A model generated the notes under the pieces. That model made no database searches. It saw nothing but the letters and a program-made list of their open reading frames with translations, and had not been told where the DNA came from. Position numbers and translations under genes: made by a program. Shown here piece by piece: positions 5,008-36,796 of a stretch of 37,792 nt of DNA (position 1 is its first letter; the number at the start of each line of letters is the position of its first letter). Origin of the DNA: a virus (taxonomy: Duplodnaviria > Heunggongvirae > Uroviricota > Caudoviricetes); IMG/VR virus record IMGVR_UViG_2690316153_000015. One strand, 5' to 3'.

Positions 5008-7830
5008 ATGACGGCAGAGTACATCAGGGACTGGCAACAACCGCGCCACGCAGTGGGGCGTGAAGGAACGGGGATCCCCGCTCCTGAATCCGCGCTTTCC
5101 TCCTGGCTGGATGCCTACCGGGCAGAGAACGAGCGCCGCCAGGAAATGGCTGATGCGGCGTTCTCCGCCACGCCGCTGGGCAACCTGATTAATAAAAGCC
5201 TGGACGCACAGGAAAAACAGGACAAAACCATCACACTGGCAGGAGACGCCAGAAAACAGGCACGTGGCGCGGTGGATGAAGCCATGGCCTCACTGCGCCT
5301 GCTGCCGTCCTATCTGCGCGATCCGCTTATTCGCCACCTCTCCTTCCTGCGCAAAAAACAGGAAGCCGATCGCCGGAAAGGCAAAAAGAGCTGGCAGGCT
5401 GAACGCTACGCGTGCGGAACCCTGCGCAAAATATTCGAACGTCTGGACCGCACCGACCACCGCTGGCTGACACCGGGTTATCGCTCCCTTGCCGGACGCG
5501 AACGCCTGGATGATTTGCTTTACCTGCCGCAGCTCAACAAACACCAGATACAGACGCTGGCCACCATGACGGCGGCGATGTTCAGCAGCACCTTCGAAAA
5601 ACTCTGCGATGGCTTTGGCGCGACTGATGGCGAGCTGACCATGGATGTAACGCTGAAGGCTTATCAGATGCTGGCCCGCATGGCGTTACACCTGCACGCC
5701 ATGCCTCCACATTATGACGCACTGACAACAGACAAAGACCGGAGGAACGAACCGGACACGGAGCTGCTGCCGGGCGCAATCCTTCGCCTGACCTGTGCGG
5801 AATGGTGGAAACGCAAACTGTGGCTGTTACGTTGTGAGTGGCGGGAAGAACAACTCCGCGCCGCCTGTCTGGTTTCCAGAAAAACATCCCCCTATCTGAG
5901 CCAGGACGCGTTAAGCGAGTTTCGCGCACAGCGCGAGAAAACGCGCGATTTCCTGAAAAGTTTCATGCTGGAAAATGAAGACGGGTTCACGATTGATCTC
6001 GAGACGGTGTATTACGCGGGAGTAAGTAACCCGGTTCACCGTAAGGCAGAAATGATGGCCACCATGAAGGGACTGGAACTTCTGGCCGAAGCCCGTGGCG
6101 ACAGAGCGGTGTTTCTGACCGTCACCTGCCCGTCAAAATACCACGCAACAACGGAGAACGGTCATCCGAACCCCAAATGGAACGGGGCCACCATGCGCGA
6201 CTCCAGCGATTACCTGGTTAACACGTTTTTTGCGGCGGTCCGCAAAAAACTGAACCGCGACGGCCTGCGCTGGTATGGCATCCGCACGGTGGAGCCTCAC
6301 CATGACGGCACTGTGCACTGGCATATGATGGTCTTTGCACATCCGGACGAGATTGAAACCATCGTGTCCCACGTCTGCGATATTGCCATTCAGGAGGACC
6401 GCCACGAGCTGGGCGATGACATAACTCCGCGTTTTAAGGCGGAGTATGTCGACGGCTCAAAAGGCACACCAACCAGCTACATCGCCACCTACATCGGAAA
6501 GAACCTGGACAGCCGCGCCGTGGATGGCATCGACCCGAAAACGGGCAAGCCACGCGTTGACCACGAAACAGGTAAATCAATGGCCGAGAGCGTGGAGCGC
6601 GCCATCGGCTGGGCGCGCCTTCACCGGGTCCGTCAGTTCCAGTTCTTTGGCATCCCCTCCCGTCAGGTGTGGCGTGAACTGCGCCGCCTTGCCAGCCAGA
6701 TGGCACGCAATCCGGAAGGCCCGCAACGGCTGAAAGATGATGCAATGGATGCGGTACTCGCTGCCGCCGATGCCGGGTGTTTTGCCACCTACATTGAAAA
6801 ACAGGGTGGCGTGCTTGTTCCACGCAAGGACTACCTGATTCGCACCGCCTACGACCTCGCAGATGAGCTGAACGATTACGGCGAACAGAGCGTACAGATT
6901 TACGGGATCTGGTCACCACTCATCGGGGAATCCTCCCGTGTGTGCACGCATCCGGATAACTGGAAGCTGGTAAGACGTAAACCAGAACCGGAAGACAACG
7001 CCCACGAAAATGGTTTTGACCTTCAGGGCGGCCCTGCCGCCCCTTGGACTCGTGGCAATAACTGTCCCCGTGTACAGGAAACAGGCAACAACGGGACAGA
7101 ACAGCCGGAAGAACGGCCAGCACCGTGGCCGCAGCTTCCTGACGGCGTTGAAGTAAATGAATGGATGCGCTCACTGAAACGGCACGAACGCCGGGCGCTG
7201 ATGCGTTCGCTTCGTGACAAACAGGCAAAAAACAGCAGCGATGAAATGCAGAACTGGACACAGAGCCGCAAACAGCAGCGGCCTTTGCCTGATAACCACG
7301 AGTTACTCGCTAAAGAATGGCGGGAGTCTGCTGAATCTCTCGGCCTGCATATCGGTGAACAACAGATGCAGCACCTGTTACGGGGCGGCAGTCTGTACGT
7401 TGACGGCAGCATCATTGCACCGCAGGGATTTGAAATTGTACGCAAACCGGATACCCGCCCGGACAGCCGAATCACGCAGCTCTGGCAGCGTCTGAGCCGT
7501 AATCATGGCGTAAGCAGCACGGAGATCCGCCATAACCCGGTCGCCAGCTATCTGGCACAGCTGGGGGCATCAGACCCTGAAGCCGCCGCACGCCTGGCAT
7601 CCACACTTCAGCAGGACCAGAACACCATGAAAACACCCGTTACCGTGCTTTCTGACATGCTGCGCGCCATCCGCGACGCAGAGCACGCACAGAGAATCAG
7701 TGAAACCACTGAACGCGCCAGCCGCAAAGCAGACCTGCTGCGGGGTGGCCTGACCAGTGGAAACAAAAAACAGACAGAAACGGGACTCACGAATCCCGTA
7801 AATGAGCAAAAAACGCGCAGCGATATATGA
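5008..7830 (+). CDS. A: Replication initiation endonuclease A (rolling-circle, HUH superfamily)
   Basis: 940-aa ORF; HUH-like motif TVHWHMMVF and paired tyrosines YIATYIGK typical of P2 gpA / phiX174 A-type initiators; position after the early operon. Confidence 0.9.
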   Translation: MTAEYIRDWQQPRHAVGREGTGIPAPESALSSWLDAYRAENERRQEMADAAFSATPLGNLINKSLDAQEKQDKTITLAGDARKQARGAVDEAMASLRLLPSYLRDPLIRHLSFLRKKQEADRRKGKKSWQAERYACGTLRKIFERLDRTDHRWLTPGYRSLAGRERLDDLLYLPQLNKHQIQTLATMTAAMFSSTFEKLCDGFGATDGELTMDVTLKAYQMLARMALHLHAMPPHYDALTTDKDRRNEPDTELLPGAILRLTCAEWWKRKLWLLRCEWREEQLRAACLVSRKTSPYLSQDALSEFRAQREKTRDFLKSFMLENEDGFTIDLETVYYAGVSNPVHRKAEMMATMKGLELLAEARGDRAVFLTVTCPSKYHATTENGHPNPKWNGATMRDSSDYLVNTFFAAVRKKLNRDGLRWYGIRTVEPHHDGTVHWHMMVFAHPDEIETIVSHVCDIAIQEDRHELGDDITPRFKAEYVDGSKGTPTSYIATYIGKNLDSRAVDGIDPKTGKPRVDHETGKSMAESVERAIGWARLHRVRQFQFFGIPSRQVWRELRRLASQMARNPEGPQRLKDDAMDAVLAAADAGCFATYIEKQGGVLVPRKDYLIRTAYDLADELNDYGEQSVQIYGIWSPLIGESSRVCTHPDNWKLVRRKPEPEDNAHENGFDLQGGPAAPWTRGNNCPRVQETGNNGTEQPEERPAPWPQLPDGVEVNEWMRSLKRHERRALMRSLRDKQAKNSSDEMQNWTQSRKQQRPLPDNHELLAKEWRESAESLGLHIGEQQMQHLLRGGSLYVDGSIIAPQGFEIVRKPDTRPDSRITQLWQRLSRNHGVSSTEIRHNPVASYLAQLGASDPEAAARLASTLQQDQNTMKTPVTVLSDMLRAIRDAEHAQRISETTERASRKADLLRGGLTSGNKKQTETGLTNPVNEQKTRSDI

Positions 7831-7877
7831 AGCGCGCACAAAACAGGCAAAAACGGGATTTCAGAATCCCGTAAACG
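7770..7877. repeat. Two 36-bp direct repeats, each containing the dyad ACGGGA-N8-TCCCGT, straddling the A stop codon upstream of parM (parC-like centromere/operator candidate)
   Basis: ACAGACAGAAACGGGACTCACGAATCCCGTAAATGA (7770-7805) versus ACAGGCAAAAACGGGATTTCAGAATCCCGTAAACGA (7842-7877). Confidence 0.55.
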
Positions 7878-7906
7878 ATTAATTAATCAACATAAGGAAA
7901 ACCGAC

Positions 7907-8866
7907 ATGAAAATTTACATCGACGACGGCTCCACCAACATCAAGCTGGCATGGACTGAGAACGGCGAACGCCGCAACGCCATCAGCCCGAACAGCTTCA
8001 AGTCGGAATGGTCTGCGCCGTTCGGTGGCTCGCAGCCTGCTAACTACATGCTTGATGGCGTGCGCTATGGTTTTGATCCGGTCAGCGATCGCTTTGTCCA
8101 GACGACCGACACGCAATACCAGTACAGCGATGTGAATGTCATTGCCATTCATCACGCGCTGGTCAAATCAGACATCACGCCACAGGAAGTGGATGTGGTT
8201 GTTACCCTGCCACTGAGCGAATATTTCGACACAAACGCACAGCCGGACCTGGCCAACATCAACCGCAAAAAAGCGAACGTCATGCGCCCGGTGGAGTACC
8301 AGAACGGCGAAGCATTCACTATCCGTAACGTACGGGTTATGCCTGAATCCATTCCAGCTGGCTTTAAAGCACTGGCTGACATGAGTCCGTTTGAATCCCT
8401 GCTGATTGTGGATTTAGGCGGAACCACGCTGGATGTGGCAAAGGTTCAAGGGCAACTGGCAGGTATCAGCCAGGTGTTTTGCGATCCACACGTAGGCGTT
8501 TCCCTGATGGCCGATGCCGTACTGTCGGTGATGGCCACTAACGGTATGCGCACCAGTCACCACATCGCCAATACCATTATCGAACATCGCAATGATGAAG
8601 CCTGGCTGCGCCAGCACATCCACAATGACGCGCATTACGCCAGCCTGATGGCGGTTATTCGTGAAAAGGAAGAAACACTGAAACAACGCGTGATCCGCGC
8701 GCTGGCGGTTTTTTCGGGTTACGGGCGGGTGATGGTTGTCGGTGGAGGGGCGGAGATTGTGGCACCCGCTATCCGCGAAGTCTGCGGAGTTAATGCGACT
8801 TTCATCGCGGACGGGGTGCCACAGTTTGCTCTGGTTAATGGGCTGTACGCAATGGACAAGGAGTAA
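7907..8866 (+). CDS. parM: Actin-like plasmid segregation ATPase ParM/StbA family
   Basis: N-terminus MKIYIDDGSTNIKLAW...ISPNSFK...YSDVNVIAIHHAL closely resembles plasmid R1 ParM as I recall it; phosphate-binding DLGGTT and VGGGA motifs; 319 aa. Confidence 0.85.
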   Translation: MKIYIDDGSTNIKLAWTENGERRNAISPNSFKSEWSAPFGGSQPANYMLDGVRYGFDPVSDRFVQTTDTQYQYSDVNVIAIHHALVKSDITPQEVDVVVTLPLSEYFDTNAQPDLANINRKKANVMRPVEYQNGEAFTIRNVRVMPESIPAGFKALADMSPFESLLIVDLGGTTLDVAKVQGQLAGISQVFCDPHVGVSLMADAVLSVMATNGMRTSHHIANTIIEHRNDEAWLRQHIHNDAHYASLMAVIREKEETLKQRVIRALAVFSGYGRVMVVGGGAEIVAPAIREVCGVNATFIADGVPQFALVNGLYAMDKE

Positions 8867-8869
8867 ACC

Positions 8870-9185
8870 AATGACGACACCAACCAGACGGATAAGTTTC
8901 TATCTGAAGCCCGCCGCCGTCAAGAGTGAACAGGAGGCGTGCAATTACCTCGATAGCCTGCCAGCCTCCGAACGCAGCCGCGCGCAACGCGCGGCCTTTC
9001 TGGCTGGGCTAGCGCTCATAAAGCGCAACCCAGCATTTGCCTACTGGATGGCCGAATGGCCAGAGGACAACCTCCCCTTCAATACCGTTAGCATCAAGGA
9101 AACATACCAGGATAATCAGCCTAGCGGAGTTGAATGCAATTTTTATAAAATAAAAAAGAATATTCAAACCTTATTCCCAGAATAA
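8870..9185 (+). CDS. parR: ParR-like centromere-binding adaptor (ribbon-helix-helix)
   Basis: Start ATG at 8870 with AAGGAG RBS; RRISFYLKP...LDSLPASERSRAQRAAFLAGLAL resembles R1 ParR (…LDSIPQGERSRLNRAALTAGLAL); the longer track ORF from 8736 would overlap parM. Confidence 0.7.
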
Positions 9186-9268: not shown

Positions 9269-10111
9269 TCATGATGAAATTGCCGAAGTTTTTTTATCGT
9301 GCTGAAGTACCGCAAATGCCATTAAAACCTCAAGAGAATAGCGGCGATAATACTTAACAAAACCATAATAAAATACTCGGGATGCAGCAATACAAAACAA
9401 GAGAAGAAAACAAAAAGGTAACAGCCTGATATTTATATCTATTAAAAAGGATAGAAGGAACAGGAACATAAGCAACCAGACTGAAGCGAGAAAAACAAAT
9501 GTAATGTTTCTACAAAAACCATACAAAGCAACATAGTTTTGCATTTTCACCTGATGATTTTTAGAATGTTCATACACATAATGATAAGCAAGGCGAAAAA
9601 GATCGCCCCTCAAGCCCTTACGTCGATATAGCGTAGATACAGAAAAAACATTTATATAACCATCTCGTATTTGCGGCCAAAAGACTTTAATAAGTATAGA
9701 ATGCAGTGTGGTTTTATGATGTTCTGCTTTATCAAAAGCTGATACAGGAAATAAAAAAACTCCACGGATAAAATTAACTATACTGAACTTAGTATTATGT
9801 CGTTTTATTTTCAGGGAGCTTCTTTTAGAAAACAGATAAATTGAAGGATACCCAAGTTTACTGTTCATGTATTTTTCAATTAAACAGGATGATAGAATAG
9901 ATATGAAGTGACCTGAAATATATGATAGAACGATTAATACCACATATATAAATACACTTATTATTTCTTTATATTTCAGGATATGGTTAAGAATACCTTC
10001 TATATAAACAGGGTTAATTTCAATAGAAAACAAAAAAAGGATAAACAGGAATAACCCACCTGGAATTAGATAGCCCAAAAAGTCATAAAATGAAAACGGA
10101 TTCTGTGTCAC
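9269..10111 (-). CDS. Multi-pass membrane protein, unknown function (cassette gene 2); GTG start
   Basis: 280-aa ORF; at least four long hydrophobic segments; very AT-rich codon usage unlike flanking phage genes; GGGGGA RBS before GTG. Confidence 0.65.
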   Translation of the reverse strand: MTQNPFSFYDFLGYLIPGGLFLFILFLFSIEINPVYIEGILNHILKYKEIISVFIYVVLIVLSYISGHFISILSSCLIEKYMNSKLGYPSIYLFSKRSSLKIKRHNTKFSIVNFIRGVFLFPVSAFDKAEHHKTTLHSILIKVFWPQIRDGYINVFSVSTLYRRKGLRGDLFRLAYHYVYEHSKNHQVKMQNYVALYGFCRNITFVFLASVWLLMFLFLLSFLIDINIRLLPFCFLLLFCIAASRVFYYGFVKYYRRYSLEVLMAFAVLQHDKKTSAISS

Positions 10112-10150
10112 ACTTCCCCCTGTGTTACTTGTAAATTAAAGGGTAAAACA

Positions 10151-10648
10151 TTATTTGTTTTTCCGTAAAGGATTAGCTTTCCATCTTCTTACTAACCATT
10201 CGAATTCTTGATATGTAGTATCCGAATTAATGCTTTCTCTGATTGCTTTAATTAATGGCTCGGCAATATCATATGTCTCTACAACTGTTGTGTAAGATGT
10301 TCTTTTTATCATTTTTTCATCATAAATACCTTCACGAATACTTACAGCAACTCGCTCGTAAAAATTTAAAATATATTGAAATTTTCGACGCTCGGCCATT
10401 TCTTCATCTGTTATTATGCAACCATCACAAGGAAAAACATAAGAACGAAATGATTTGCCTGAACGATGCACTTGTTTCAGGGTATGCAATGACTCTATAT
10501 ATTGCATATCTTGCCGACTCTCAAAAAGAAAGTTGGCCGTTTGAGTTTTTTTTGCGGTACGCACATTGTAGATAATGGTTCCAATGGCAACCAAAACGCC
10601 AAGCAGAACAATAGCATTGCTGATGATTTGTAGTGTTATTGGGTTCAT
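10151..10648 (-). CDS. Single-pass membrane-anchored protein, unknown function (cassette gene 1)
   Basis: 165-aa ORF; N-terminal TM segment ITLQIISNAIVLLGVLVAIGTIIY then ~135-aa soluble domain with CDGC motif; AT-rich; 39 bp upstream of gene 2. Confidence 0.65.
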   Translation of the reverse strand: MNPITLQIISNAIVLLGVLVAIGTIIYNVRTAKKTQTANFLFESRQDMQYIESLHTLKQVHRSGKSFRSYVFPCDGCIITDEEMAERRKFQYILNFYERVAVSIREGIYDEKMIKRTSYTTVVETYDIAEPLIKAIRESINSDTTYQEFEWLVRRWKANPLRKNK

Positions 10649-33231: not shown

Positions 33232-34254
33232 TTAATACGCATTTAATTTAAATTTGTATTTGCCTTCTATGTAATGGATAAATTCAATTATGCTTTTTTC
33301 TATCGCATCTAATATATGAATATATCCATCCCGATTTAAGGTCCTATCCAACTCAAAGTGATGAACTATCCCATGTCTATATTGTATGATTTCAGAAATT
33401 CGATTCTCAAGAAAATCAACTGATTTTCCAATTCTTTTTTTCTTATAAAGAATCGCTCTCACATCTATATCCAGCCACTCTTTATATGCTTTGTTTAGGT
33501 GGGTTAAGTTTTGAAAAGTGTAATTTCTTGCAATAACACTTTCTATTGAAATATTTCCTTTCTCTATCTCAAGCAGAATATCAAAATCAACTTTTTGCTT
33601 ATACGATGTTCTTTTTGCTATTGCGAAAGGATCGTACTTTATAAGTATTTGAAAAGCTCTAGAGAAAAAGTATTCAAACATAGCAACCGCAAAAGGTACT
33701 AATCCATTATATATAACTCTACTGGGATCCATACATTGCATGTAATCAAAGTATTCGGATAAGCCGCCATCTTCCGGTAGGTTTAATTTAATAGAAGGTT
33801 CAGGTAAGGCATGTTTAACAGCGGAAATCTCATGATGGACATGATTAAATATTGAAGAAATGCCACGACTGATCGGACTACTAGAATCCTTCCATAGAGG
33901 AGCGTACCTATTTTTCCCATAATCACCTATAAGTGTTCCACCAAAAAGACTCCTTGCGCCTTTTAGAACATCATTAAGCATTTTTACATCATGCCAACTA
34001 GCGCTATATAAATTACGCACATGCAATGCCCATTTATTACCAGATATGTGTAATTCGTCATTTGAAACAGGATATATATCAGCCGAAACTCCATCTGTAG
34101 ATTTGAAGTCCGTATCATCAAACCAAGAGTAATTCAACGTTCCTTGGGGCCATCCCCACAAATGTTTACACCTTTTAAAACCTAAATTTTCAAGGTAATT
34201 TTTAAGTTCGTTTCTAGTTGCTTTTTTAGGGTACAGCGTTATATCTCTTCCCAT
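33232..34254 (-). CDS. AT-rich hypothetical protein with C-terminal R-x4-H (HEPN-like) motif
   Basis: 340-aa ORF; low GC relative to backbone; motif YRHGIVHH near the C-terminus; inserted between D and ogr. Confidence 0.6.
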   Translation of the reverse strand: MGRDITLYPKKATRNELKNYLENLGFKRCKHLWGWPQGTLNYSWFDDTDFKSTDGVSADIYPVSNDELHISGNKWALHVRNLYSASWHDVKMLNDVLKGARSLFGGTLIGDYGKNRYAPLWKDSSSPISRGISSIFNHVHHEISAVKHALPEPSIKLNLPEDGGLSEYFDYMQCMDPSRVIYNGLVPFAVAMFEYFFSRAFQILIKYDPFAIAKRTSYKQKVDFDILLEIEKGNISIESVIARNYTFQNLTHLNKAYKEWLDIDVRAILYKKKRIGKSVDFLENRISEIIQYRHGIVHHFELDRTLNRDGYIHILDAIEKSIIEFIHYIEGKYKFKLNAY

Positions 34255-34445
34255 GCTTTATTCACCTGATATACAATATTTTAAATTTTAACTATTATGA
34301 ACGTATGAATTTTCACATTGGATGTATGGAAGTTCAACAACTATTGAAAGTTCAATTTTCACTCTTCGCACAGAGCGAGCTGTTAGTTGGAATTAGGGAT
34401 CGTACAATCTAGAATAGCGGCAACACCACGTTAAGGGAGGTCGCT

Positions 34446-34706
34446 ATGTTCCGTTGTCCGCTTTGTGGCGCATCTGCCCGTATCCGCACAAGTCGTCCGG
34501 AAAATGATTCAAACACCGTGCGGCAAAAGTATTACCAGTGTAACAATCTGGAATGCGGCGTATGCTTCTCAACACTGGAAGCTTTCCATAAATTCACATC
34601 GAAACACGCCTCCGGCGTTCACTCTTCAGAAGGTATCCCGTGGCATGAGCTACCAGCTTCACACAGGGGAAACAATCAGATGAGTTTGCCTTTACCTCAG
34701 AATTAA
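34446..34706 (+). CDS. ogr: Ogr-type zinc-finger late gene activator
   Basis: MFRCPLCGAS...QCNNLECGV gives the C-x2-C...C-x4-C pattern and N-terminus of P2 Ogr. Confidence 0.85.
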   Translation: MFRCPLCGASARIRTSRPENDSNTVRQKYYQCNNLECGVCFSTLEAFHKFTSKHASGVHSSEGIPWHELPASHRGNNQMSLPLPQN

Positions 34707-34896
34707 CAAGCAGAATTGCCGGAGTAACAAAAAAGCGATAGATTACGCGCGGGTGCCTTTCGGCTGATGGTCGGAGGGAATACCCGAAGGCCAGATGTGG
34801 AAAGGCCCCGGAAAACACTTTTGTTTAACCGAGGCCCTAACCGTCTACCCTAAGCAAGTGAAAGGTTAGCGCCTCTCCGGAAAAGGAGCAAGTGCT

Positions 34897-35037
34897 ATGT
34901 CGCAAAAATCGCTTACAGCCATCACGTTCTGCGTGACGGTAATCCTCATCATCTGGATGTTGCACGGTTCGCTGTGCGAAATACGGATGAGTTTCTGGGG
35001 AGCGGAGTTTGCGGCGTTCTTACAGTGTAAGCAGTAA
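34897..35037 (+). CDS. Hok/Gef-family type I toxin (46 aa: MSQKSLTAITFCVTVILIIWMLHGSLCEIRMSFWGAEFAAFLQCKQ)
   Basis: Single TM helix followed by the conserved SLCEIR...E.AAF signature of Hok/Gef peptides; AAGGAG RBS; GC hairpin GACGGGGGA-GTAAT-CCCCCGTC downstream; absent from the ORF track because under 60 aa. Confidence 0.65.
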   Translation: MSQKSLTAITFCVTVILIIWMLHGSLCEIRMSFWGAEFAAFLQCKQ

Positions 35038-35298
35038 GGAAACCGCGACGGGGGAGTAATCCCCCGTCAATCGGTTGCCAGGGTAAGGTCGATAAGGCAC
35101 CCTATCTCACGGCTCTAAATGCAAAAATTCCATGAAACTGTGGGATTTTTGCATCACTACTGATACAGATCTGCCCTTCTATATGTCTCACTCTATACCA
35201 GCTAATCAATTGACACTTATCAATAAAAAAAAATCTGATAAAATCAAAATGTTTTGTAACAAATATCAACTCGTATTGATCCAAAGGAGGCGGATTAC

Positions 35299-35631
35299 AT
35301 GGCATTAATCAAATGTCCTGAATGCCAGAAAGAGGTGAGCGATTCAGCATTGTATTGCCCTGCTTGCGGTAAACAAATAAAAAAACTTAAGCGTTCATTT
35401 TTTGGAAAGCTCATTAAGTGGATATTTATATTATTTAATATTTTTATGATCTATACGCTTTTAGTTGGACTGGGAGGCACTAGTGAAATAATAAATAATG
35501 CTACATCCGATGCCGAAAAAGCCGGTGCAGTTATTGGTACAGGCTTAGGTTTAATTACCATTGGAAGTTTATGGGTTATTGGCGATATCATTATCGGAAT
35601 TTTAGTATTTCTTACTAAACCAAAAGGATAA
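35299..35631 (+). CDS. Zinc-ribbon membrane protein (hypothetical)
   Basis: 110 aa; N-terminal CPEC-x13-CPAC zinc ribbon then two hydrophobic helices; AT-rich; GGAGG RBS. Confidence 0.6.
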   Translation: MALIKCPECQKEVSDSALYCPACGKQIKKLKRSFFGKLIKWIFILFNIFMIYTLLVGLGGTSEIINNATSDAEKAGAVIGTGLGLITIGSLWVIGDIIIGILVFLTKPKG

Positions 35632-35635
35632 CAAA

Positions 35636-36529
35636 ATGAAAAATATAATTTTTTCTATAGGTGCATCATTTATATCAATTAGTGTACTGCCTGTTCACGC
35701 AGCAACTGAACATAATAACTTCAATGCAGTACTCCAGTGCCGAGCAATAGAAAATAATAAAGACAGACTTTCTTGTTACGATAAGTCAATACAACCGACT
35801 CGAACGAAAGTTGCTGAAAAATTCGAAAGCAGAGATCAATGCCCTGATGAGAAAGATGATGACAGACGTTTATCTTGTTATGATCGTTTTTTTTCTCCAA
35901 CATTTACTCCATCTGTAAACTCAAAATCTAAAACGGAAAAGCCAGTAACAACAGAGGCTCAGCAACCAAATCTTTCTGAGATATCTAAATGCCGAGCAGA
36001 AAATGATAAAGAAGCCAGACTAAACTGCTACGATAAACTATTCCCACAGGATAAAGCTGTTCAAGCTGAATCAAAATTAGAGAAAGCCACAGATGTAGGA
36101 AAATGGCACACATCCATTACTACATCGCCAATTGATGATTCGAAAAATGTAATTTTATCGTTAGAAAGTGATGATTATATCAGAACTCCATTTGGAGAAG
36201 CGGTTACTCCCACTCTGTTTATAGCTTGCCGAGAAAAGAAAACCGAAGTATTTCTTAGTTGGGATGTATATTTAGGCCTTGAACAAACCAGCATGCTTTA
36301 TCGTCTTGATAAACAGAAAGCAGTTGAGCGAAACTGGCTAGTATCTACAGATACAAAGGCTGTTTTTTATAAAGGTAATGACATTGATTTCATCCGAAAA
36401 CTAGCCAACTCAAACAAAATGTATACAAAAATAACTCCTTATAATGAGAGCCCTGTAAGTGCAACTTTCAATTTAAACGGCCTGTCAAACGCGCTAAAAC
36501 CACTTCAAGCTGCTTGTAACTGGAAATAG
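35636..36529 (+). CDS. Secreted protein with three tandem C-x12-C-Y-D repeats (hypothetical)
   Basis: 297 aa; signal peptide ending VHA-AT; repeats CRAIENNKDRLSCYDK, CPDEKDDDRRLSCYDR, CRAENDKEARLNCYDK; 4 bp after the upstream gene. Confidence 0.65.
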   Translation: MKNIIFSIGASFISISVLPVHAATEHNNFNAVLQCRAIENNKDRLSCYDKSIQPTRTKVAEKFESRDQCPDEKDDDRRLSCYDRFFSPTFTPSVNSKSKTEKPVTTEAQQPNLSEISKCRAENDKEARLNCYDKLFPQDKAVQAESKLEKATDVGKWHTSITTSPIDDSKNVILSLESDDYIRTPFGEAVTPTLFIACREKKTEVFLSWDVYLGLEQTSMLYRLDKQKAVERNWLVSTDTKAVFYKGNDIDFIRKLANSNKMYTKITPYNESPVSATFNLNGLSNALKPLQAACNWK

Positions 36530-36555
36530 CATAAATCATGTGGCTTAGCCACAAT

Positions 36556-36600
36556 CACAGATAACACAAAGCCCGTGAAAACGGGCTTTGTGTTATCTGT
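36556..36600 (+). terminator. Strong hairpin (19-bp perfect stem ACAGATAACACAAAGCCCG / CGGGCTTTGTGTTATCTGT, 7-nt loop)
   Basis: Perfect inverted repeat 26 bp after the stop of the secreted-protein gene. Confidence 0.5.
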
Positions 36601-36614
36601 AACTCGAAAATGTG

Positions 36615-36631
36615 GTCACTACGTGGACACG
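36615..36631. repeat. Candidate attR core GTCACTACGTGGACACG, matching GACACTGCGTGGACAC at 14..29 inside the 3' end of int
   Basis: 15 of 17 bp shared between a sequence at the int end of the prophage and one just before host flk. Confidence 0.3.
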
Positions 36632-36796
36632 TGCTGATATAAATCCTTTTATATCAATAAATTAAATCATCATTTTTTTCATCAACAAGGATTTTCACGT
36701 TTGTGTTACCTGTATGAGACGAGAGTTAACCGGACAAGTGTGCCATAATCTCGCGGCCAGGCATACTTGCGAAGATTTCAGGTATAAGGATACGTA

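Follow-up and report, generated by a model that had tools for sequence, protein, structure and literature searches.

Type I toxin-antitoxin loci of the hok kind carry an overlapping mok frame and an antisense Sok RNA in the leader of the toxin gene. For the hok/sok (parB) locus of plasmid R1, translation of mok up to the hok ribosome-binding site has been reported to be mandatory, and mutations in the mok start codon as well as premature mok stops abolish toxicity (PMC9841398). In the chromosomal hokC/mokC/sokC (gef) locus of E. coli K-12, mokC begins at an ATG located 8 nt after a GAGG and extends HokC in frame at its N terminus. A plasmid copy of the R1 type likewise has an ATG 8 nt after GAGG and a frame that reads into hok. 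Prophages also bear loci of the hok/sok type, such as hokW-sokW in the Stx2 prophage Sp5. In a 2026 catalogue of the Hok family (bioRxiv 10.1101/2025.08.07.668861), hok was found to be enriched in prophages, with no enrichment near defense systems; this catalogue considered the coding sequence only, with Mok and Sok outside its analysis.

Here we describe a locus of this kind within a stretch of 37,792 nucleotides of viral DNA (IMG/VR record IMGVR_UViG_2690316153_000015; hereafter, the window), which represents a P2-like prophage of the P88 type. We consider it very likely that positions 34716-35102 are a complete hok/sok-type type I toxin-antitoxin cassette of the 46-residue Hok subfamily (cluster 72 of the catalogue), and that it rides as cargo in this P88-like (P2-like) prophage, in the interval from ogr to its right end. 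The Hok family, the 46-residue subfamily, and the exact peptide have all been catalogued already, and the gene is already annotated by PGAP. The only unusual feature of the window cassette is its lack of mok.

The Hok peptide and its prophage setting

The original prediction described a 46-codon ORF behind ogr with a strong ribosome-binding site and a GC hairpin downstream, and each of these is present in the window. The ORF lies on the + strand at 34897..35037 (46 codons plus stop) and encodes a 46-aa peptide, MSQKSLTAITFCVTVILIIWMLHGSLCEIRMSFWGAEFAAFLQCKQ. Its Shine-Dalgarno (SD) sequence, AAGGAG, can be read at 34883-34888 on the same strand, 8 nt before the ATG. The hairpin is a GC stem-loop after the stop codon, GACGGGGGA-GUAA-UCCCCCGUC (35048..35069, + strand), with a 9-bp stem (35048-35056 / 35061-35069) in which relatives show compensatory changes at five pairs. 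This stem-loop lacks the U tract that would follow a canonical terminator, and its probable function is to protect the processed hok mRNA at its 3' end, by analogy with the last stem-loop of the truncated R1 hok mRNA (PMC9841398).

This ORF is a genuine gene for a Hok toxin and has its regulatory RNA elements. Peptides of the Hok/Gef family have about 50 aa, a transmembrane helix at the N terminus, a conserved C..T…LCE…E.A.F pattern, and a score above the family cut-off, and the 46-aa window peptide agrees with this description in length, helix, pattern, and score. It matches Pfam HOK_GEF (PF01848) with 30.1 bits (E 3.7e-7; gathering score 22 bits) and PHROG 251 with an E-value of 2.5e-23. When aligned to HokA, HokC, and R1-type Hok, it keeps the invariant L-C-E ... 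E.A.F columns, and its residues C12, T14, L26-C27-E28, and E37 fall on conserved Hok/Gef positions. Across 59 variants of the cassette the ORF is 46 codons long in 57 and 47 codons long in the other two, and it is conserved in E. coli, Salmonella, Klebsiella, Citrobacter, and E. albertii with 61-100% identity, which we count in support of selection acting on the ORF. The Hok/Gef identity assigned in the original prediction is thereby upheld, but the ORF is not unannotated as had been stated: it is labelled “Hok/Gef family protein” by RefSeq/PGAP and “MokW-like host killing” in RefSeq phage records.

The closest named relative of the window peptide is HokA (NCBIfam NF007290), the best-scoring named Hok, with 43% identity (E 2e-11) and the segments W-M..SLCE and AAFL.CK in common. 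Because its score against NF007290 is 35.8 bits, far under the equivalog cut-off of 89, the window Hok is not a HokA orthologue; it is also four residues shorter, and hokA occupies another genomic site, adjoining cspA. No intact hokA leader was found for comparison; the two hokA loci examined, in K-12 and in an ST131 strain, both have IS150 directly upstream. Identity is 33% to R1 Hok, which has 52 aa compared with 46, and 24% to HokC. The “MokW-like” label derives from hokW-sokW, which resembles the window locus in being a prophage-borne locus of the hok/sok type, and it reached the window ORF only through the family name of PHROG 251. We rejected the possibility that the window locus is the published hokW, as HokW is HokC/D-like, with 51 aa and the termini MKQQKAM…DYESEK (primers in Takada et al. 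2021, PMC8621323), whereas the window peptide has 46 aa and reads MSQKSL…LQCKQ, and the two are different paralogues. The Stx-phage relative of the window cassette is instead a second hok cassette, located downstream of lom, with 82% nucleotide identity. The names hokX/sokX also exist in the literature; no mapping of them to the window cassette was achieved.

The exact window peptide is unique sequence #1628 of the Hok catalogue, in cluster 72 (bioRxiv 10.1101/2025.08.07.668861). Two peptides of this cluster were cloned and tested there: 72_1621, which differs from the window peptide by one residue (V16A) and is reported as toxic, and the Stx-phage form 72_1589. Of the 45 peptides tested, three were non-toxic, and these include neither of the two (bioRxiv 10.1101/2025.08.07.668861).

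The hok cassette is prophage cargo and lies outside the P2 core. The window prophage encodes an integrase (1-1020, - strand), a C-type repressor, cox, the replication protein gpA, late genes, gpD, and ogr (34446-34706), together with a ParM/ParR partition module that is common to the same phage group. PADLOC reports a weak Csx27 match at 9269-10111. The region 34400-35300 is 100% identical to Escherichia phage 500465-2 and 95-98% identical to P88, P884B11, Chuche, PhiR44_2, and Citrobacter phage Shae_phiSM, and in several related phages of the P88 type the similarity ends at 35108-35110, immediately past the cassette. The core chromosome (5' end of pdxB, flk) returns only at about 36676, and the two further cargo genes that lie in between are present in only 237 of 5426 E. 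coli genomes. The cassette itself was found in 1586 of the 5426 complete E. coli genomes, mostly adjoining ogr. The unit of about 370 nt is also found in lambdoid and Stx prophages, where it follows lom or gpJ (78-83% identity). Further copies lie next to a T6SS vgr gene and, in Salmonella, behind the ogr of a P2-like prophage and as tandem pairs; others come from Klebsiella oxytoca, Citrobacter braakii, and E. albertii. In E. coli and Salmonella, the 46-residue Hok subfamily is frequent in prophages of both the P2-like and the lambdoid type, and the cassette behaves as a discrete, mobile cargo module.

The hok leader, its RNA switch, and the antisense strand

The whole cassette spans approximately 34716 to 35102, from the -35 box of hok through the fbi element, so that the bounds of 34720-35075 proposed originally are too short at both ends (the -35 box at 34716 and the fbi element at 35087-35102 lie beyond them). 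The hok promoter (34716..34744, + strand) consists of a -35 box TTGCCG at 34716-34721, a 17-nt spacer, and a -10 box TAGATT at 34739-34744, and homology to the Stx-phage copies begins at this -35 box. Among the 59 variants TTGCCG is found in 42 and TAGATT or TAGAAT in 52, with the same spacing. The promoter agrees with the consensus at 8 of 12 positions, just under the threshold of the stringent scan. Transcription is predicted to start in the region of GGGUGCC at 34751, where the G lies 6 nt beyond the -10 box, and the predicted full-length hok mRNA covers 34751..35102 (+ strand), with its 5' end placed by the promoter and by where the Rfam model begins, and its 3' end at or past the fbi element. 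Homology among cassette relatives ends at AAGGCACCC (35094-35102).

Positions 34751-34910 match the complete Rfam model RF01794 with 51.9 bits (E 5e-10), which is under the gathering score of 59; relatives of the cassette score 33-57 bits and K-12 hokC scores 118 bits. On K-12 this model, named “sok”, matches the hokC/mokC strand, opposite the annotated sokC. The match in the window therefore shows a hok leader and not the existence of an antisense RNA, and we dropped it as evidence for the latter. The hokC and window leaders are homologous, with RF01794 on the hok-sense strand in both, and each of them begins with GGGUGC at the 5' end, contains a GAGGCC motif, and has the same spacing of the AAGGAG ribosome-binding site. 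An Rfam match to CsrC at 34955-35078 (13 bits, E 0.57) was dismissed as chance. The 360-nt hok transcript folds with a minimum free energy of -160.1 kcal/mol and a z-score of -7.75, with its 5' and 3' ends paired, and both this fold and the RF01794 match go beyond chance. The original classification as a hok-type type I toxin locus is supported.

Folding with ViennaRNA and covariation among relatives point to three elements on the + strand that correspond to the conformational switch of other hok mRNAs: a tac element (GGGUGCCUUUCGGCU, 34751..34765), a complementary fbi element (…GGUCGAUAAGGCACCC, 35087..35102), and a ucb-like box (GAAAGGCCCC, 34797..34809). In the predicted fold of the full-length RNA, 34751-34765 pairs with 35087-35102 in a long-range tac/fbi closure, and the ucb-like box pairs with the GAGG region. 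When the 3' tail is removed (34751-35072), tac pairs with ucb instead, and GAGGC pairs with GCCUC. The latter helix (34831-35 with 34871-75) closes the predicted Sok-target hairpin at 34831..34875 (+ strand), whose loop at 34848-34857 contains CUAA, a YUNR-type motif; the predicted unpaired probability of this loop is 0.24 in the full-length RNA and 0.89 after truncation. In the RNAalifold consensus, the target helix (columns 111-123 / 146-157) has 97% of its cells paired.

In an alignment of 26 non-redundant relatives, tac:fbi covaries at four pairs (9, 10, 8, and 7 double-sided changes), and so do pairs of tac:ucb (7, 8, 3, and 3). Alignment columns 35, 36, 38, and 39 of tac covary with both fbi and ucb, and in each of the two helices about 92% of cells are paired, compared with 30-55% when the partners are slid. 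At columns 81:116 of the ucb:GAGG helix, a GC pair is replaced by AU in five sequences. The compensatory changes in tac:fbi and tac:ucb imply a regulatory RNA under selection, and covariation across the three helices is, at the level of sequence comparison, the signature of the hok conformational switch. The hok SD is predicted to pair with an upstream CUCC at 34875-34878, a would-be anti-SD. This helix (columns 150-160 / 168-179) has 92.7% of its cells paired, with one-sided changes only. The AUG region is predicted to pair with the conserved coding segment for AEFAAF, and the SD and AUG are largely paired in both forms, with an unpaired probability of 0.33 in the full-length and 0.42 in the truncated RNA.

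The original prediction also expected mok and sok elements upstream of hok and proposed a search of the opposite strand for a promoter and terminator. The sok part of this expectation finds support in a conserved promoter-like pair and a terminator-like hairpin, while the mok part does not hold (see below). The predicted sok promoter (34863..34891, - strand) has a -35 box TTGCTC (34891..34886), a 17-nt spacer, and a -10 box TAACCT (34868..34863). It matches the consensus weakly, at only 6 of 12 positions, yet the pair is well conserved in the 59 variants, with TTGCTC in 52, TAACCT in 56 (and TATCCT in 2), and the 17-nt spacer in 57. The stringent promoter and terminator scan reported neither the hok nor the sok promoter, and its sole flag, a minus-strand “terminator”, is the post-stop hairpin read backwards. 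The predicted Sok-like antisense RNA (34799..34856, - strand; about 58 nt, with ends placed from the promoter and the hairpin) would begin with a 5' tail complementary to the target loop, followed by a terminator hairpin (34836-34829 / 34811-34804) and UUUCC, and it folds with -23.8 kcal/mol and a z-score of -3.09. The minus strand of the leader aligns with the sok strands of K-12 hokC and of the R1-type plasmid copy, and the promoter-like pair sits at approximately the same position as the sokC and R1-type promoters, about 6 nt nearer the hok ATG. Homology and conservation thus leave the predicted Sok well supported.

Taken together, the likeness to R1 hok/sok extends to the Hok-family peptide, the tac/fbi closure with its alternative tac/ucb pairing, the GAGGC:GCCUC target hairpin with a YUNR-type loop, the stem-loop after the stop, and a predicted antisense promoter that overlaps the hok ribosome-binding region and would give an antisense RNA of about 60 nt. 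The two differ in that the R1 element belongs to a plasmid and the window element to a prophage, and in that the window cassette has no mok start after GAGG, every frame there being closed by a stop ahead of the hok ribosome-binding site.

The leader without a mok frame

We took as mok a frame that starts about 8 nt after a GAGG SD and is read at least to the hok ribosome-binding site, and searched for it in all three frames, first in 13 and then in 59 cassette variants. The GAGG at 34831-34834 sits where the mok SD lies in R1 and hokC, but no start follows it: an ATG, GTG, or TTG 4-12 nt after GAGGC was found in none of the 59 variants, whereas the hokC and R1-type controls each have one. Between GAGG and the hok ribosome-binding site, the window copy has stops in all three frames (34838-34840, 34851-34853, and 34867-34869). 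The mokC frame continues into HokC, but the corresponding hok frame of the window is interrupted by a TAG at -30 from the hok ATG, which is present in 51 of the 59 variants and is the complement of the sok -10 box. No conserved mok start, frame, or stop was found in any of the three frames of the 59 variants, and judging from these sequences the window leader is without a mok frame.

Other short frames are present in the leader. The window copy has one upstream ORF at 34767-34853 and another of 24 codons at 34795..34869 (+ strand), which is in the hok frame and ends with the TAG 27 nt before the hok ATG. Neither is conserved among relatives in start, frame, or stop. A canonical ORF that reaches the hok ribosome-binding site exists in only 20 of the 59 variants, in the form of long frame +2 ORFs with varied starts, ten of which begin at an ATG without an SD sequence. 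A phrase search of the literature for descriptions of hok loci without mok gave no relevant hit.

Proposed expression and probable role of the cassette

By analogy with R1, the full-length hok mRNA would be inert, and slow trimming of its 3' end to the stem-loop at 35048-35069 would flip it to the tac:ucb form. The short-lived Sok would then bind the exposed target loop, and the duplex would be degraded. If the sok gene were lost or silenced, the long-lived hok mRNA would be translated and Hok would depolarize the inner membrane. Because there is no mok leader frame, Hok would have to be translated directly from its own ribosome-binding site, and Sok would act through RNA decay or RNA structure and not through a block of mok translation. 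We suggest, tentatively and at somewhat less than even confidence, that cluster 72 (46-residue) Hok may work without a Mok leader peptide, with direct translation of Hok from its own ribosome-binding site and control by Sok through duplex decay or re-routing of the GCCUCUCC anti-SD segment. When Sok binding was simulated by forcing 34797-34857 to be unpaired, the unpaired probability of the hok SD fell from 0.42 to 0.33, and as this effect is small, it gives weak support for closure of the SD by Sok.

A different solution would be that a short upstream ORF replaces mok, with its translation unwinding the anti-SD hairpin and licensing hok, and with Sok blocking it. The obvious candidate is the ORF at 34795..34869, which has a GAAGG 4 nt before its ATG and lies wholly inside the region predicted to be covered by Sok; as it ends 14 nt before the hok SD, a terminating ribosome could open the CUCC:GGAG pairing. 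Its GAAGGCCNGATG start is present in 47 of the 59 variants, but it is gone in the other 12, including all Salmonella, Klebsiella, and Citrobacter copies examined. Indels of 1-2 nt in the leader shift the frame between close relatives, and the stop wanders from -81 to +134 relative to hok, with most copies stopping 45-46 nt before hok, well ahead of the ribosome-binding site, so that we regard such a substitute as improbable. It could also be that the native locus is poorly expressed, since mok is mandatory in R1 and the SD and AUG of the window are predicted to be largely paired. Taken to its end, this would make the cassette a translationally silent relic, whose mRNA yields no Hok without mok and which persists by hitch-hiking with the prophage. 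The loss of toxicity in R1 mok mutants (PMC9841398), the stops in all three frames of the window leader, and the inactivation of many chromosomal hok loci of K-12, such as hokA by IS150, are in line with such a relic. Against it, the length of the ORF is kept across several taxa, none of the promoter, tac, fbi, ucb, or target hairpin is disrupted, and both alternative helices are upheld by compensatory changes, implying that the switch is still under selection. Peptides 72_1621 and 72_1589 also stand outside the non-toxic set of the catalogue (bioRxiv 10.1101/2025.08.07.668861), and we consider a silent relic very improbable.

The original prediction offered prophage stabilization and phage exclusion as roles, and both are reasonable suggestions. 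From what is known of other hok loci, the cassette probably serves to retain the prophage, on which the cell would come to depend. Its main role could instead be lysis and release of progeny at induction, or abortion of infection by other phages, and we regard this as rather unlikely. In Sp5, the antisense RNA of hokW-sokW vanishes after mitomycin C, HokW accumulates, and the phage yield is halved without the locus (PMC8621323), but as described above hokW is a different paralogue. R1 hok/sok is cited in the same study as lowering the plating of T4 (PMC8621323). P2-like phages carry cargo at variable sites, and the window prophage has more cargo beside the cassette; however, PADLOC has no defense-system model that matches Hok or the neighboring cargo, and the catalogue gives no sign of hok clustering with defense systems. 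The ParM/ParR module of the same prophage leans toward a maintenance role for the cassette, and the occurrence of ParM/ParR and hok/sok together in P88-like phages is a small hint of investment in plasmid-style maintenance.

The apparent independence from mok is the only point in the window cassette that we consider worth an experiment. If it is true, the mok-free subfamily would be a natural exception to the R1 rule of obligatory mok translation. A widespread subfamily that lacks mok and has its full RNA switch under selection would also provide a natural test of whether the Hok family requires mok coupling, and of what role the conserved GAGG plays when it is not a ribosome-binding site.

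A possible RNA constraint in the hok coding sequence, and database labels

Within the hok coding sequence, the start codon and first 16 nt (34897-34912) are predicted to pair with the segment encoding AEFAAF (35003-35018). Synonymous sites in the latter are nearly invariant among 26 relatives, which, from sequence comparison, suggests an RNA-structure constraint acting inside the coding sequence itself. The Rfam model RF01794, labelled "sok antitoxin", matches the hok-sense strand, that is, the mRNA leader, both in the window (34751-34910) and at the K-12 hokC locus (L004, 602-754), where the annotated sokC RNA lies on the opposite strand; relying on this model to assign strands will mislabel the antitoxin. 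The Hok ORF (34897-35037) is also named "MokW-like host killing" in the RefSeq phage records NC_049343.1 and NC_026014.1 and in PHROG 251. This name is doubly misleading, as the ORF is Hok rather than Mok and is not the experimentally studied hokW paralogue.

Copies of the hok cassette elsewhere

Among the genome contig matches L017, L018 and L021, cassette copies encoding the identical peptide were found in assemblies labelled as a Planococcaceae MAG and Vagococcus sp., and an 857-nt Xanthomonas pisi contig has a copy with 74% identity. All of these most likely represent enterobacterial contamination of the assemblies concerned. Salmonella contigs contain a tandem pair of cassettes of the 46-residue subfamily, about 490 nt apart (L014, 1501-2131; L015, 1501-2135), and each copy has its own promoter as well as its own tac and fbi, the pairing elements at the 5' and 3' ends of the predicted hok mRNA.

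Right end of the island and additional cargo

Two further cargo genes lie 3' of the hok cassette (35110-36675). The first (35299-35631) encodes a membrane protein with a zinc ribbon and the second (35636-36529) a VasI/TagO-like protein associated with type VI secretion; just 237 of the 5426 E. coli genomes carry them. Sequence common to all genomes restarts at about 36676 with the 5' end of pdxB, followed by flk, which places the right end of the island at that point rather than at the hok cassette. Just beyond the end of similarity to P88-type phages is a perfect, AT-rich 10-bp inverted repeat (35119-35154; ATGCAAAAAT … ATTTTTGCAT), which could serve as the hok terminator or represent a recombination junction.

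An inserted 340-aa ORF on the minus strand (33232-34254) separates tail gene D from ogr and may be a cargo or defence gene; it gave a weak RiboL-PSP-HEPN match below the cut-off (E 1.2e-4) and no match in PADLOC or PHROG. Two more minus-strand ORFs (9269-10648) occupy the variable region that separates the partition module from the portal gene, where P2-like phages usually carry cargo. One encodes a member of PHROG 12528 (280 aa) that has a weak Csx27 match in PADLOC (E 1.9e-5), and the other a DUF4760 protein.

A plasmid-type partition module

Directly 3' of replication gene A is a plasmid-type partition module (7764-9185) encoding ParM (7907-8866; Pfam StbA_N and ParM_N) and a ParR-like partition protein (about 8871-9185; phrog_2515). 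These genes are preceded by two direct repeats of 42 nt (7764-7805 and 7837-7878), each with an internal ACGGGA..TCCCGT hairpin, that could be a centromere-like site. The P88-like phages with the hok cassette also share this module, and therefore both stability loci of plasmid R1, parMRC and hok/sok, have counterparts in these integrating phages.
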